From NCBI RefSeq assembly GCF_000026545.1, contig NC_011601.1: 64,000 nucleotides of DNA, one strand, 5' to 3'. The notes beneath the pieces are model-generated. The model did not search any database. It was not told the DNA's origin and worked only from the letters and a program-made list of their open reading frames with translations. A program made the position numbers and the translations under genes. Source of the DNA: Escherichia coli O127:H6 str. E2348/69. Lineage in GTDB: Bacteria > Pseudomonadota > Gammaproteobacteria > Enterobacterales > Enterobacteriaceae. This document shows, one piece after another, positions 7,545-64,000 of this stretch; position 1 is the stretch's first letter; each line of letters begins with the position of its first letter.

Positions 7545-8498
7545 ATGCGTTTCAGTACCCAGATGATGTACCAGCAAAACATGCGTGGCATCACCAATTC
7601 TCAGGCAGAATGGATGAAGTACGGCGAACAGATGTCGACGGGTAAGCGAGTCGTTAACCCTTCAGATGATCCCATTGCTGCATCACAAGCTGTTGTTCTC
7701 TCCCAGGCACAGGCACAAAACAGCCAGTACACGCTGGCGCGTACTTTCGCCACTCAAAAAGTGTCACTGGAAGAGAGTGTGCTTAGCCAGGTCACCACTG
7801 CTATCCAGAATGCTCAGGAAAAAATTGTCTACGCCAGCAATGGCACCTTGAGTGACGATGACCGGGCCTCACTGGCTACGGATATTCAGGGGCTTCGTGA
7901 TCAGTTACTGAATCTGGCGAACACCACTGACGGTAACGGGCGCTACATTTTTGCCGGTTATAAAACAGAGACTGCGCCGTTTAGTGAGGCTGACGGTGAT
8001 TATGTCGGCGGAACAGAAAGTATTAAACAACAGGTCGATGCTTCGCGTTCGATGGTGATAGGACATACGGGCGACAAAATTTTCGACAGTATTACCAGCA
8101 ACGCGGTAGCGGAACCAGACGGTAGCGCTTCTGAAACCAATCTTTTTGCCATGCTGGATAGCGCCATCGCAGCCCTGAAAACGCCGGTCGCGGATAGCGA
8201 AGCGGATAAAGAAACCGCCGCTGCGGCACTGGATAAAACCAACCGCGGACTGAAAAACTCGCTGAACAATGTGCTGACTGTTCGCGCGGAATTAGGCACG
8301 CAGCTGAACGAACTGGAGTCGCTTGATTCATTAGGTAGCGATCGCGCTTTAGGGCAAACGCAGCAGATGAGCGATCTGGTTGATGTGGACTGGAATGCAA
8401 CTATTTCATCTTACATCATGCAGCAAACGGCATTGCAGGCATCGTATAAAGCATTTACCGATATGCAGGGATTGTCGCTCTTCCAGCTCAACAAATAA
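7545..8498 (+). CDS. flgL: flagellar hook-associated protein 3 FlgL
   Basis: 317-aa ORF, flagellin-like N- and C-termini; last gene of the flgB-L cluster. Confidence 0.95.
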   Translation: MRFSTQMMYQQNMRGITNSQAEWMKYGEQMSTGKRVVNPSDDPIAASQAVVLSQAQAQNSQYTLARTFATQKVSLEESVLSQVTTAIQNAQEKIVYASNGTLSDDDRASLATDIQGLRDQLLNLANTTDGNGRYIFAGYKTETAPFSEADGDYVGGTESIKQQVDASRSMVIGHTGDKIFDSITSNAVAEPDGSASETNLFAMLDSAIAALKTPVADSEADKETAAAALDKTNRGLKNSLNNVLTVRAELGTQLNELESLDSLGSDRALGQTQQMSDLVDVDWNATISSYIMQQTALQASYKAFTDMQGLSLFQLNK

Positions 8499-8592: not shown

Positions 8593-9377
<785 letters not shown>

Positions 9378-12696: not shown

Positions 12697-13057
12697 CGTA
12701 ACTTACTCATTATTCTTACATTGACGACTAAGCTGCGGGCAAAGTAACGCCTTTCCGGGTGTGAACCGATGGCCTCGTGTCTAGTCGCGTCGCCAACCTC
12801 ACGGTTATCGTCAGCTCAAAGAGGCGCAGAGTGTCGGTTGCCCGTTTTTCATGCGGAAAAACAGCGCAATTATCAAAGAAACAGACTGGGTATTACTCTC
12901 CAGAAATATTTCCATCTACCGGTAAGGACTGCAACCCGCAGCCCGCTAACTGCCTGAAAGATCAATACGTCTTACACCATTGCTGCGTGGATGATCGGTC
13001 GGGCAAAATGGGTTATTCCGTAAAATTTCTTGTTTTAACAAGGATGGACACGGAAAC
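12697..13057 (-). promoter_or_regulatory. rne 5' untranslated leader (autoregulatory)
   Basis: Long non-coding stretch upstream of the rne start; a leader of about 360 nt is known for rne; exact 5' end not determinable from sequence. Confidence 0.45.
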
Positions 13058-56656: not shown

Positions 56657-56714
56657 AAAAAGGGCGGCAGAGCAGTCACGGAGTAAAACTGATACCGCCA
56701 AACGTCACCAGAAA
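56657..56714 (-). ncRNA. dicF: DicF small RNA
   Basis: Minus-strand sequence TTTCTGGTGACGTTTGGCGGTATCAGTTTTACTCCGTGACTGCTCTGCCGCCCTTTTT matches the recalled DicF sequence including its terminator hairpin and U-tail. Confidence 0.75.
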
Positions 56715-60526: not shown

Positions 60527-60801
60527 ATGGAGACTGTTTTTGACGCACTGAAAGCAATGGGAAAAGCCACATCCATAGAACTTGCTGCGCGCGTGAAGAA
60601 GTGCTGAACGAACTATGGGAACTGAAAAAGGCTGGTTTTGTTGATAAAAGCGCGTACACCTGGCGTGTGGCTGATAACAACGTTCAGCAGGAACAGCCAG
60701 CGCAGGCAGAACTGCCGGAAGAAACCACCACAATGAGTGAAGTTATGCAGCGCATACTGGCATTTTATCAGGGAAATGTTCGATATTTTAGACGTTACTA
60801 G
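60527..60801 (+). pseudogene. small prophage gene split by a frameshift
   Basis: [26 protein letters not shown] then stop at about 60605; the reading frame continues after a 1-nt shift as ...[25 protein letters not shown]...RYFRRY (60601-60801). Confidence 0.45.
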
Positions 60802-61240
60802 ATTAAAGAGCATTAGTTCAGATGTGAATTGACATTGTGTGGCACAGGGTTGGGCTAGCGTGGGGGTTTGCTTTGTGTAAGAAACGGATGCTCTGCAAAT
60901 TACTACTAATGCTTAATGTTAGTCTGATCTGCTCCCCGATGATTAATACACCGCTATGTTAGTAATGTCTGTAGATCGCTGTGTGTTGCATCCATCGGTT
61001 GACCCCACAGTCCAAACCAGACTGTCAGCTTTGATTCGATTCTATCTACTCAACCTGTCAGGTAATGTCTGAGCTAATACACAGAGTACGGCTATCGCGA
61101 ACTTTAAGCTAGGTATCTGATACGCACCGTTCACTTGGTCGTACTTCTTGCACTGACTAGCTATCGTGCGCAGTTATTTATAGGTAATCTCCAGTGTATA
61201 ATTTTCCAACTTATGGGAGATTGTAAAACAGGAGGAATAT

Positions 61241-62083
61241 ATGAGGAAAAAATCGTTTGGACGTTGCCCGTTTGATTTCGACGAAGATGTAAAAAAAATA
61301 GCCGCGATAAATAAATATATCCATGCGAAATTTGAGAGGCATAAAAATAAAATAGATAACCTAAAGGGGGTGGAACAAAAATTGATGGTTTTACATTACT
61401 TTAATGTACTGAATGAACTTAGTAATCAGGCTATATTTTCTTTGAGTACCGGAGCCTTTTCAGCATCGGAAGTATTAACTAGAGTTATAATGGAACAGGC
61501 TGCCAATCAATTTTATATAGCAATTGATGATGGAAAAAATGCACAAGCATTACTCAAGGGTAGTAAGAAATTAGTTCATAGTAATGGGAAACGGTGGCTG
61601 GAGTGTTTAAAATCCAAAGAAATGACTAATCCAGCAGCAGATGAAAGGATTCGTATCGGAAAAGAGCTAACTGATATGTTTAATAGATTGTGGCCAAATA
61701 CACCTGAATATCCTGGAACCAAAAAGCTTTTCGAAGTAATTGGCTGGGAAACACACTATCATGCCTATTACGTCCCTCTTTGTGATTCAATACATACATT
61801 CTCTGATGATATGGCAAATATAGTATCTCTATATAATGCAATCCAAAGCGATAAAACTACTGCTATCGAACTCACTCTTGCAGTTAAACAAGAAAATAAA
61901 CGGCTGGCAATTTATAATGTCGTAATTGCTATTGGCCTGCGGTGTGAGGCCTTAGTAAATGTATTTAACTCTTTAGGTTATCGAGATATTATAACTGAAA
62001 TGGCGCCAACAATAGATGCAGTCAACCAGATTATAATTCGATATGATGATTTCGAACATTCCAGAATTTTTTATTGTCAATAA
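61241..62083 (+). CDS. hypothetical protein, AT-rich cargo gene (predicted mostly alpha-helical; function unknown)
   Basis: 280-aa ORF with AGGAGG SD 7 nt upstream and TATAAT -10 at about 61196; Lys/Ile/Asn-rich codon usage unlike the flanking prophage backbone. Confidence 0.7.
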   Translation: MRKKSFGRCPFDFDEDVKKIAAINKYIHAKFERHKNKIDNLKGVEQKLMVLHYFNVLNELSNQAIFSLSTGAFSASEVLTRVIMEQAANQFYIAIDDGKNAQALLKGSKKLVHSNGKRWLECLKSKEMTNPAADERIRIGKELTDMFNRLWPNTPEYPGTKKLFEVIGWETHYHAYYVPLCDSIHTFSDDMANIVSLYNAIQSDKTTAIELTLAVKQENKRLAIYNVVIAIGLRCEALVNVFNSLGYRDIITEMAPTIDAVNQIIIRYDDFEHSRIFYCQ

Positions 62084-62140
62084 TTAATTGGCAGAATTCG
62101 TACATGCACAACAACTAGTTATAGTTGACCTATTTCGCTC

Positions 62141-62709
62141 TTGAGAGACAACCATACTCAAATCTTCCACATTGCAGGAGATTTGAGTATGAATACGTCA
62201 CCGAGGAACAAAGACAGTATCATAGGCCCAAAAAGACCACTTCAGATATCTCATATCTGGGGGCTCCAAATCCGGCTTGAACTGGAAGGTAAAACGCGTG
62301 ATTTAGCTCGGTTTCAAGCAGAGCTACGGTGCTGCAACTGAAAAACTGGCAGTCCTATCCAATTTGAGATAACCAAAGGGACAAGAGAAGCTGTTTCTGC
62401 ATTGATAAAGCTTGGCAATTTACGCAGTAAAGACTACTTGTTCCGATCTCGGGTCGGTACTAACCAACACATATCAATCCTGCAATATAACCGAATCTTT
62501 CATAGGAGGGAGAAAAGCTTGGTCTCGAAGATTCGCTTTACAGCACACATTCCATGAGAAGAACAAAACCTTGCCTTGTCTGCAAGAAAACTAAGAATCT
62601 CCGGGTGATCCAACTTCCGTTGGGCCATAAGAAAACGGAAAGCACAGTTCGTTATCTGGGTATAGAAGTTGATGATGCATTAGAGATCTCTGAATCGATC
62701 GAAGTCTAA
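62141..62709 (+). pseudogene. decayed tyrosine recombinase (integrase-family) gene
   Basis: Recombinase segments spread over three frames: ...KRPLQISHIWGLQIRLELEGKTRDLARFQAELRCC / FEITKGTREAVSALIKLGNLRSKDYLF / SMRRTKPCLVCKKTKNLRVIQLPLGHKKTESTVRYLGIEVDDALEISESIEV (HxxR...Y catalytic tail). Confidence 0.6.
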
Positions 62710-62715
62710 AGCTGT

Positions 62716-62737
62716 CAGGGCTGCAGCAGCAGCCCTG
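62716..62737. repeat. perfect hairpin (9-bp stem, 4-nt loop) immediately after the recombinase relic
   Basis: cagggctgc-agca-gcagccctg; no U-tract follows, so not a canonical terminator. Confidence 0.5.
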
Positions 62738-63121
62738 TGCCAAGAGCGTACCAATATATGTCTCAAAAAATTGGGCACAGGTCAATATCAATACCAACAA
62801 CTCTGATTGTGCTCATGTGATTTACTCCTGTAGAAAACGCAGACAGTAAAAATATTTCACTGGCTGCTTCAGACAGGGCGTCCATCATATCATTACATAA
62901 CAATAGCGGGGCACGATATCTAGACATGCAGCAACGATGGACATAGAATGAGTACAATCAAAAGCATGTTTAACTACTTTAATTTAAAAATCTTAGAATC
63001 TTAGGTGTAGAGTTCAATACTTAGTTACATACCCTTTTGAAAGCATCACAAATCATAACTATGAGCCTGTTAAAGGCATAGGTATTCTTAATTAAGAGCA
63101 TTTTAATGAGAGAAAAATAAA

Positions 63122-64000
63122 ATGAAAAGACTATATTATACCCATCATGATAGTCGAACCTTAAAACTTGCTATAGAAGGTGATGTTTCTGATAATGCGA
63201 ATATTTTTACAGTAATTGTAGGTAAAAATGGCGTTGGAAAAAGCAGATTGTTATCTCAGATTGCTAAAGACTGTATTCAAGATATTCATTTCTTGAAAAC
63301 TTTTAATCCATTATTTGACAGAGAAATAACACCAAAGTTAATTGCCGTATCTACCAGCCCATTCGATAAATTCCCTCCAGGGCGTAGGTCATTAAATCAC
63401 CAAAGGAAAGAAAATAATTATCGCTATGTGGGTATGCGTGGAGAAGGCCCCTTCGGCGTATCAAATGCCGTATCCCTTTTATCTTCAGCAGCGAGAGGTT
63501 GGCTAGAGAAACTTGCTTATTCAGAAAATCCTGCAAATTTACTCGATGTTTTTCATTCTATTGATTTTGAGCCCCATATAGAGTTTGTATTTAAACCAAC
63601 TTACAACGGACCGGACACTCCTGACTATAACTTCATTGGTGTATATTCAGATGAGATATTAACGGAAGTTAAGGAGTTATATTTAAAATACAATATAAAA
63701 ATTGACAGGAAGAATATTGAGAGTCTCTTAAAGTTAAACTCCGAATCACGTCATGATATTTACGAAGCACTGGTTGAAATTAATCGATTTGAACCTGAAC
63801 GTAGGGCTGTAACCTTGTCAGTCGATTTTACCAATGGTGAAACATTGGTTGGCTCGACTTATGCGAATAATTATTTTTCTAGATCAATTCTTAAACTTAT
63901 GAACGCTGGCTTCATGAGATTGATGGATATGCGACTCATAAAAAAAAGCTATGGTCCCATGTCACTTAAACGTGCGAGCTCGGGAGAACAATGTTTATTA
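63122..64000 (+). CDS. ABC-type (AAA_15/AAA_21/OLD-like) ATPase, N-terminal 293 codons; runs off the window end
   Basis: Open frame from the ATG at 63122 with no stop to 64000 (absent from the ORF track for that reason); Walker A VIVGKNGVGKSRLL near residue 33; ABC-signature-like SSGEQ at the last codons; AT-rich. Confidence 0.7.
   Translation, partial: MKRLYYTHHDSRTLKLAIEGDVSDNANIFTVIVGKNGVGKSRLLSQIAKDCIQDIHFLKTFNPLFDREITPKLIAVSTSPFDKFPPGRRSLNHQRKENNYRYVGMRGEGPFGVSNAVSLLSSAARGWLEKLAYSENPANLLDVFHSIDFEPHIEFVFKPTYNGPDTPDYNFIGVYSDEILTEVKELYLKYNIKIDRKNIESLLKLNSESRHDIYEALVEINRFEPERRAVTLSVDFTNGETLVGSTYANNYFSRSILKLMNAGFMRLMDMRLIKKSYGPMSLKRASSGEQCLL

Follow-up and report, generated by a model that had tools for sequence, protein, structure and literature searches.

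Inverted repeats that bound the Z region of P2-like coliphages, where they flank the Z/fun genes between G and FI, are the closest described counterparts of a boundary repeat at 60925-61082 in the window (the whole 64,000-nucleotide stretch of the Escherichia coli O127:H6 E2348/69 chromosome analysed here). The repeat lies in the unannotated stretch 60802-61240 of a Qin/Rac-like lambdoid prophage next to potC (RefSeq annotation), in front of a DUF5677 gene. The repeat family was reportedly described for P2-like coliphages by Nilsson, Karlsson and Haggard-Ljungquist in 2004 (Mol Biol Evol 21:1), a work represented here by a GenBank annotation and one sentence of a review. The GenBank entry, AJ512677 ('P2-EC31 proviral Z-region', Nilsson lab), annotates members of the family as 'left inverted repeat' (3-115) and 'Right inverted repeat' (1616-1706), and the review sentence, citing Nilsson 2004, states that inverted repeats flanking fun enable site-specific recombination; the family is therefore already known. 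The window copy has the same box A, CAGACTGTCAG core, TGTCAG and GAGCTAATACA as the P2 repeats (52.6-63.5 bits, E 3e-14 to 7e-19) and, like them, is found at the edge of hypervariable accessory genes. It differs in its place, between the DUF1627/DUF977 (lygF) pseudogene and the DUF5677 gene of a lambdoid prophage, with hokD beyond, although the G-FI location describes where the family was found and not the repeat itself. Unlike the P2 repeats, the full copy in the window is not a backbone copy but stands internally, at the 5' end of a cassette, and carries a 32-nucleotide (nt) insertion, while its backbone partner is decayed and a right-hand partner is missing.

The first part of the window copy resembles the end of an insertion sequence (IS), ISSen4. 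The ~47 nt at 60925-60971 share the TGA terminus and 89-93% identity with the left inverted repeat (IRL) of ISSen4, which precedes orfA/orfB with their programmed frameshift; this end sequence occurs in hundreds of E. coli chromosomes and plasmids, as many as 20 times in one genome. Both the IRL and the right inverted repeat (IRR) of ISSen4 align with the composite repeats over the whole 45 nt, with the same conserved blocks (TGACCTGC-CCC, GATTA-ACA and GTTAGYAAYGTC). Two phage records label the ISSen4-type transposase 'IS407'. In contrast to ISSen4, the window sequence lacks orfA/orfB, a significant second end and a target-site duplication, and the terminus continues into the Z-region repeat and not into a transposase leader.

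Three further systems are comparable in part. Phage and satellite defence hotspots (Rousset et al. 2022, PMC9122126) likewise offer alternative accessory genes in a fixed backbone slot, here DUF5677 with Septu PtuAB, elsewhere QueH or DUF4145; the passages of that article on the P2/P4 variable loci place them next to cos, leave the mechanism of exchange open and call for experiments. The slot described here differs from those in having recognisable flanking repeats common to two phage families. Integron cassettes with their attC sites also show imperfect repeats at cassette boundaries, unrelated genes and a tyrosine recombinase nearby, whereas here the repeats form inverted pairs and not direct arrays, no conserved hairpin is predicted, and the recombinase is not IntI-like and is absent from other cassettes. 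Mobile insertion cassettes and miniature inverted-repeat transposable elements have in common with the locus an IS-type end that delimits a passenger unit in two unrelated replicons; here, however, the second end is non-significant, direct repeats are missing, and the end orientation is reversed in most family members. The feature belongs to a known kind, the boundary repeat at a cassette end, met here in a new phage context; it is not an insertion sequence, an integron or an RNA element.

Anatomy of the left border

An earlier note on this DNA, made from its letters, had described 60802-61240 as a stretch free of meaningful open reading frames (ORFs) at a backbone/cargo boundary, with repeated 8-10-mers, and both the placement and the absence of coding capacity held. 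Homology to lambdoid phages stops at 60877-60899 and homology to P2-like cargo begins at 60924; the largest ORFs touching the stretch comprise 30-46 amino acids, and the RefSeq annotation is feature-free from the DUF1627 pseudogene to the DUF5677 gene. The stretch is very probably non-coding DNA that borders an accessory-gene (moron/defence) hotspot of the lambdoid prophage on its left side. This border appears to be built from four pieces, namely a decayed backbone repeat, a 34-nt junction, a composite boundary repeat, and the cassette promoter with its ribosome-binding site (Table 1).

The suggestion that the stretch might be a relic of an element end is supported. A hidden Markov model (HMM) of the composite repeat, built without the window sequences, spans 60925-61082 with 63.5 bits (E 6.7e-19, model positions 1-126), and an HMM of the IS-type inverted repeat matches 60925-60971 with an E value of 1.7e-10. 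The segment 60925-61082 is very probably a complete, ~158-bp member of the Z-region boundary-repeat family (the repeat being ~130 nt) with an IS3-family-type terminus. In it, an ISSen4-like terminal inverted repeat is joined to a Z-region inverted repeat, and the two together form the 5' end of the cassette. In strain 98208, the 23 nt of 61013-61035 are found again at the right edge of the P2 cargo, with TGTCAGG at the same 20-nt distance, and, inverted, at the left flank.

All the repeated words listed by the earlier note are present: the 10-mer GTAATGTCTG at 60962-60971 and 61062-61071, and the 8-mer ATGTTAGT at 60916-60923 and 60956-60963. A 9/10 relative, AGGTAATCTC, is found at 61182, and there are two copies of TAATACAC (60944 and 61075). 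When the 439 bp were shuffled 2000 times with dinucleotides preserved, 6.6% of the shuffles contained a repeat of 10 nt or longer (P ~0.07) and 71% one of 8 nt or longer, and the five repeated 8-mers observed compare with a mean of 1.7 in the shuffles (P 0.065). The counts of GTAATGTCTG and ATGTTAGT in the whole window are within expectation. The internal repeats alone are only marginally above chance. Chance frequency, which the note had named as an outcome that would speak against a feature here, is nearly what the words on their own give, yet the homologues show a conserved repeat family. The P2-borne homologue has GTAATGTCCG and ATAAGGTCTG, so the exact identity of the two 10-mers is not conserved. 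In the boundary repeat, one GTAATGTCTG copy belongs to box A and the other lies where box D begins; of the two TAATACAC copies, one corresponds to the inner IS-type block and the other to the last part of box D. The significance of the stretch derives from membership in the repeat family and not from the internal 8-10-mers.

The second, decayed copy was found by the left-type HMM at 60810-60890 (12.8 bits, E 0.0035, model positions 10-92). It is inverted, with its box A (CGGATG, 60885-60890) facing the cargo, and it is 84% identical to an orthologous, well-preserved copy located directly after lygF in mEp460_ev081 (L005 3075-3172, E 1e-9). We regard it as highly likely that 60810-60890 is the decayed backbone partner of the full-length copy. 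The decayed minus-strand copy and the full plus-strand copy are only 34 nt apart, and the cargo lies downstream of both.

The backbone side of the border is a chimera. In the pseudogene 60527-60801, labelled in RefSeq as a frameshifted and incomplete DUF1627 gene, 60560-60732 matches DUF1627 genes and 60735 onward matches the 3' end of E. coli DUF977 genes; in related prophages (L265), DUF1627 and DUF977 are two separate intact genes. In mEp460-like lambdoid phages, including mEp460_ev081, the homologue of 60733-60877 consists of the lygF 3' end (lygF being a DUF977 gene) and the spacer that follows. The natural stop of the DUF977 tail is lost and the frame therefore runs on to the TAG at 60799-60801, which explains the ORF end that was taken as the start of the stretch.

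The 34-nt junction (60891-60924) shows no homology to the lambdoid backbone or to the P2-borne cassette. By direct reading, and without statistical support, its GCTTAATGTTAGTC resembles GCTATGTTAGTAATGTC at 60953-60969, and the first copy of ATGTTAGT may have arisen by partial duplication of inner IS-type repeat sequence. A 9-nt inverted repeat (60809-17 / 60905-13) was considered as a fimS-like switch and rejected, since by our own estimate ~1.2 such pairs are expected by chance in 800 bp and it has no other support.

Table 1. Features of the left border, the cassette and the rest of the window.
Feature	Position	Strand	Basis or remark
Backbone pseudogene tail, DUF977/lygF-like 3' end fused behind frameshifted DUF1627 fragment	60733-60801	+	Homology, RefSeq
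Decayed left boundary repeat of lambdoid DUF977-hokD hotspot (very probable)	60810-60890	-	Left-type HMM, orthology
Junction between backbone repeat and cassette, 34 nt	60891-60924	.	Holds first ATGTTAGT copy
ISSen4-like (IS3 family, IS407-like) terminal inverted-repeat sequence TGATCTGCTCCCC...GTTAGTAATGTC	60925-60971	+	Identity, HMM
Z-region-type boundary repeat proper	60962-61082	+	Right-type HMM 52.6 bits, E 3e-14 (61009-61081)
Box A, with first GTAATGTCTG	60962-60980	+	
Lineage-specific 32-nt insertion	60981-61012	+	Peculiar to DUF5677 lineage; only irregularity against composite HMM
Core CAGACTGTCAGCTTTGAT	61018-61035	+	
Second TGTCAG	61056-61061	+	
Box D GTCTGAGCTAATACAC	61067-61082	+	Overlaps second GTAATGTCTG (61062-61071)
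Candidate sigma-70 promoter of DUF5677 gene: -35 TTATTT, 17-nt spacer, perfect -10 TATAAT (61197-61202)	61174-61202	+	Prediction
Ribosome-binding site AGGAGG	61230-61235	+	ATG of DUF5677 at 61241
DUF5677 gene, first cargo gene	61241-62083	+	Pfam PF18928, E 3e-9; RefSeq
Small tyrosine-recombinase pseudogene, catalytic domain only	62189-62709	+	RefSeq: frameshifted, internal stop
Possible degenerate inverted second copy, TGACCTGTGCCC from 62784, then CGCTCTTGGCACAGGGC	62696-62784	-	Composite HMM E 0.058 (from model position 1)
Septu PtuAB	63122-64000, continuing past window (L001 11423-13418)		IS481-family element next, just upstream of hokD
RNase E 5' UTR element (rne5)	12721-13057	-	Rfam
SraB small RNA	14918-15086	+	Rfam
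DicF small RNA	56662-56713	-	Rfam

The repeat family at other hotspots

A search of IMG/VR with CAGACTGTCAGNTTTGAT gave at least 120 contigs, and most of these have the length of a P2-like phage (30-36 kb). Their alignment shows a conserved element of ~86 nt beside completely unrelated upstream sequences, with box A (AAYGTCCGC...TCGCTCAAAG) followed by the core, a variable segment of 17 nt with a few subtypes, the second TGTCAG and box D (AAGTCTGAGCTAATACA). Among these loci, nhmmer found 57 with inverted pairs separated by 1-5 kb and 15 with three copies, and at both ends of the hotspots box A faces the cargo. The edge of the repeat is sharp: in 77 distinct right-type cargo/repeat junctions (DUF5677 lineage excluded) the information content is ~0 (0.02) up to position -23 from the core, rises to 0.87 and 1.3 bits at -22/-21 and stays high thereafter. 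In copies that keep the IS-type part, the TGA terminus forms a second discrete boundary. The junctions compared show that cargo and repeat always meet at fixed positions.

The same repeats are found at lambdoid hotspots, with inverted pairs around unrelated cargo in two phage groups. In mEp460_ev081 the left copy after lygF is accompanied by a truncated plus-strand copy after the cargo, before mokW/hok. Strain 2017.15.01CC has a full composite copy after DUF977 (E 4e-11) and a truncated copy before hokD, which enclose two hypothetical genes and a DUF4145 gene, and in an ST131 strain a left copy after DUF977 (E 2e-7) is followed by QueH. One lambdoid copy and Yersinia P2-like phages have a segment of 38 nt in common (97% identity). 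The presence of copies around differing cargo identifies the lambdoid DUF977-hokD slot as a hotspot bounded by the same repeat family. The occurrence of the family at a lambdoid hotspot may be new, as may the recognition of its cargo-facing part as an ISSen4-type terminal repeat. In E2348/69 itself no right-hand copy precedes hokD, the backbone resuming after PtuB (L001 13491) without a repeat, and there is no second good copy in the window or further downstream.

The IS-type part is colinear with the boundary repeat, on its cargo side, in ~40 of the 120 loci (HMM), and 17 distinct full-length composites (IS-type part and repeat) come from both left and right copies. In diverged hotspots with other cargo, including that of phage P2, box A is preceded by TGAYCTRCYCCC...TGTTAGYAAYGTC, as it is in the window and in strains AST215 and 98208. 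In most hotspots the outer TGA terminus points toward the cargo, which is inside-out for a transposon carrying this cargo. No target-site duplications were found at the IS-type termini of three of the loci (L090, L114 and L129).

Two loci have unusual arrangements of IS-type ends. An IMG/VR contig (3300011590_000007, L092) carries at 917-1155 an IS407-like/ISSen4-like IRL with an orfA fragment that is 65% identical to ISSen4 OrfA; this remnant lies in a P2-like Z-region, ~1.1 kb from the right boundary repeat, and is the only transposase trace seen with IS-type ends in a hotspot. In AJ512677 (P2-EC31, L129), the only cargo ORF lies between two IS-type termini in direct orientation, GGG(G)AGCAGGTCA (150-161 and 1573-1596). 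The second of them abuts a diverged, oppositely oriented terminus (TCACTTCCTCTT...), and the arrangement resembles the abutted-ends junction of an IS circle.

In respect to the spread of the family, a 15-nt pattern, GCRGACTGTCAGATT, was searched over 298 Gb of genome contigs and proved too short, nearly all of the 120 matches listed being chance. True family members among the matches listed are from Mixta, Enterobacter, Erwinia, Xenorhabdus, an Enterobacteriaceae isolate and Rheinheimera. Outside Enterobacterales, Rheinheimera oceanensis (L215) has an inverted pair at 2601-2659 / 8320-8412, 5.7 kb apart, and a metagenome-assembled genome of Desulfobulbaceae (L157) has a single match at 8793-8862 (E 8e-7 to 2e-5). 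These copies may represent real spread or a binning artefact.

Role of the repeat and competing explanations

The cassette behind the repeat has a counterpart in another kind of phage. The segment 60924-62293 is ~90% identical (86-93% by segment) to DNA of a P2-like prophage in strain AST215, and in strain 98208 the similarity extends to 62673; this counterpart sits between the tail-fibre assembly gene (G) and the sheath gene (FI), i.e. in the classical Z/fun slot. Shared are the IS-like end, ~270 non-coding bp, and the genes for DUF5677 and a small tyrosine recombinase. The outer TGA terminus coincides with the start of homology between the lambdoid and the P2-borne cassettes (60924), and the comparison of these sequences shows that the mobile cassette starts precisely there on the left. 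Of 5426 complete E. coli genomes, 55 contain 80% or more of 60924-61240.

A cassette made of the repeat, DUF5677 and the small recombinase is present in lambdoid and P2-like prophages alike, and the repeats would act at the DNA level, as recombination handles or ends for the exchange of cargo between phages. The scheme we favour is one of recombination between shared repeats, the initial capture being due to some end-specific activity, rather than one driven by the adjacent small recombinase. On balance, and with some reserve, we take the repeats for DNA-level handles for cargo exchange and the E2348/69 copy for an inert relic beside the DUF5677 promoter. Its inert status is supported by the failure to find a right partner, by the decay of the recombinase to a pseudogene, and by the lack of any other match to the ISSen4-end sequence on the E2348/69 chromosome.

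Several points weigh against this reading. The cargo lies outside the pair 60810-60890/60925-61082 and no right copy was found, so the window copy cannot currently bracket cargo. A sharp edge is also expected from homologous recombination that swaps whole repeat-to-repeat segments. The invariance of the 17-nt core is partly circular because the IMG/VR loci were fetched with the core motif, the independent evidence being the copies found by HMM (left-type, lambdoid, and from other genera). The role in recombination is inferred from anatomy only. As for the promoter beside the relic, a consensus scan (at least 4/6 matches per hexamer) lists no plus-strand promoter in 60802-61240, and the -35 hexamer is weak.

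One cassette with the same start base in lambdoid and P2-like phages offers a testable handle on the fast exchange of cargo at prophage hotspots, and an HMM of the repeat is a practical marker for accessory-gene slots in prophages. For annotation, the repeat explains an unannotated gap of 440 bp and warns against calling a small RNA there.

An unlikely alternative is that 60925-62784 is a non-autonomous IS407-type transposon (a mobile insertion cassette) served in trans by an ISSen4-family transposase. Such a transposon would explain the arrival of the cassette in both lambdoid and P2-like phages, it has a near-perfect ISSen4-type inverted repeat whose outer terminus is, to the base, the start of the homology between contexts, and the L092 Z-region holds an IS407-like IRL with an orfA fragment. 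The minus-strand sequence TGACCTGTGCCC...CGCTCTTGGCACAGGGC from 62784 has the outward-facing orientation of a transposon end (left-type HMM on 62754-62697, E 0.0059) and, if real, would close an IS-ended unit of 1.86 kb. The composite HMM, however, leaves this right end non-significant, and the P2-borne homologue lacks the sequence, its homology ceasing at 62673. The flanks of the termini (AGTC/ATAT) show no target-site duplication, the copies of window type were all found in one context, and tblastn with ISSen4 OrfA/OrfB found nothing in the window's cassette, the only weak match in the locus (L001) being an unrelated IS481-family gene. That the E2348/69 chromosome has no other ISSen4-end match counts against the transposon too, as does the orientation of the IS-type termini, which mostly point toward the cargo, the wrong way for a transposon carrying it. 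Within the weak copy, directly after the recombinase pseudogene, 62716-62737 holds a perfect 9-bp stem and 4-nt loop (CAGGGCTGC AGCA GCAGCCCTG).

A related idea, which we hold to be distinctly unlikely, is that the cargo-facing 45 nt of the composite repeat are a functional recognition end for an IS3-family (ISSen4-type) transposase and bound P2-like and Qin/Rac-like hotspots. Copies of the IS in the host would supply the transposase in trans, and the inside-out ends might capture, for example, circular DNA at an abutted-end junction. Cargo turnover would then proceed in a way unlike homologous recombination or phage integrase action, and 60925-61082 would be an active or recently active end.

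The small tyrosine recombinase is the basis of another explanation, in which the repeat is its att-like or inversion site and the cassette is self-mobilising or invertible; we consider this very unlikely. The intact enzyme in strain 98208 has 194 amino acids (PF00589, E 9e-18) and forms with DUF5677 a two-gene module at L007 7925-9458. It scores below all XerC/D/IntI-type cut-offs (49 bits against a cut-off of 220 for the XerA/integron-integrase model). An att-like role would suit its weak similarity to tyrosine-type DNA invertases (NF007371, E 5e-5, far below cut-off), its catalytic-domain-only architecture and its constant pairing with this DUF5677 gene, with which it always travels, and also the position of the 98208 cassette between two direct repeat copies (L007 5002-5155 and 9969-10055), as after Campbell-type integration. 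A preprint reports that DUF5677 genes are enriched beside serine recombinases in Bacillota, a further point for this explanation. Among the ~120 repeat-carrying hotspots, however, the recombinase is confined to DUF5677 cassettes and hence is not the general enzyme of the repeats. Moreover, the repeat is kept although the recombinase gene is a pseudogene in the window and truncated in AST215, and no cassette variants of inverted orientation were seen.

The earlier note had also offered a regulatory region and a small RNA as readings of the stretch. The first is plausible for the last ~70 nt, with the predicted promoter, whose -10 TATAAT is conserved in the P2-borne homologue, and the AGGAGG; it does not extend to the repeat, which is not a DUF5677-specific regulatory element: upstream of a chromosomal DUF5677 gene of 53% identity there is only a short region, unrelated and without the repeat. 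In strain 98208, ISEc12 (L007 5151-7765, inserted at the equivalent of 61073-61082) separates the repeat from the promoter region and the DUF5677 gene is intact. An IMG/VR contig (2660238215_000016, L102) has an insertion inside the repeat at 60978/60979, which from its end we take to be of IS629 type. Two independent IS insertions in other strains indicate that the stretch tolerates disruption, consistent with a promoter within 61084-61240 and a dispensable repeat.

That the stretch encodes a small regulatory RNA, a structured leader of DUF5677 or a 38-amino-acid protein is highly improbable. The ~85% conservation over 317 bp between the two cassette lineages might seem to favour it, but it equals that of the flanking cassette and indicates no extra constraint. 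ISSen4-type IRLs usually carry a weak inward promoter, and read-through from it into the repeat is conceivable. On the other hand, a permissive Rfam search of 60600-61400 gave nothing at E<=1, the minimum free energy is not below that of shuffled sequences (plus strand, z -0.70; minus strand, z +0.95), and a scan of 60802-61240 found no terminator-like sites. RNAalifold on 56 diverse family members gave consensus energies of -1.0 and 0.0 kcal/mol for the two strands, i.e. essentially no common structure. The absence of any such upstream element from the 53%-identical DUF5677 gene also speaks against a leader. The ORF at 60956-61072, of 38 amino acids, is open in both lineages, with four synonymous and four non-synonymous differences; it was rejected as a gene since the 32-nt insertion shifts its frame relative to the core as compared with other family members, and many copies have no ATG.

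The least probable explanation, that the 47 bp are the scar of an ordinary, later deleted ISSen4 insertion and the rest is decayed DNA with chance repeats, can draw on the identity to the IRL that active ISSen4 copies carry in hundreds of E. coli replicons, on the near-chance internal 8-10-mers and on the landing of ISEc12 and the presumed IS629-type element here in other strains, but is already largely refuted: the IS-type repeat is joined to the Z-region repeat in the same position and orientation in ~40 loci, at left and right ends; the inner end abuts the repeat, where a scar would have the outer terminus; the remainder of the stretch matches the family at E 3e-14; and the composite copies, including those of phage P2 and a lambdoid prophage, are mutually diverged and form one conserved unit and not a recent scar, their divergence also speaking against recent transfers of a single sequence.

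Cargo genes and prophage surroundings

The DUF5677 protein has no match in PADLOC or NCBIfam, and a search for related loci with it returned near-identical copies in the same context only. According to a preprint, an Enterococcus DUF5677 gene was tested and was not among the active defence genes.

The prophage reads, in the RefSeq annotation, integrase, excisionase, exonuclease, dicB, ydfABC, repressor, dicC, a ydaT-like gene, replication genes (P) and the frameshifted DUF1627 pseudogene. After the unannotated gap there follow the DUF5677 gene, the tyrosine-recombinase pseudogene, a pair of genes for an AAA ATPase and an HNH protein, an IS481-family element and hokD-rem. At the Rfam gathering threshold, the whole window gives only the rne5, SraB and DicF matches of Table 1, all elsewhere than in the stretch, and the DicF match is consistent with the Qin-like identity of the prophage. 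The AAA ATPase and HNH pair downstream of the cassette was identified with PADLOC as a complete Septu system, made up of PtuA (E 2e-165) and the HNH nuclease PtuB (E 1e-83).

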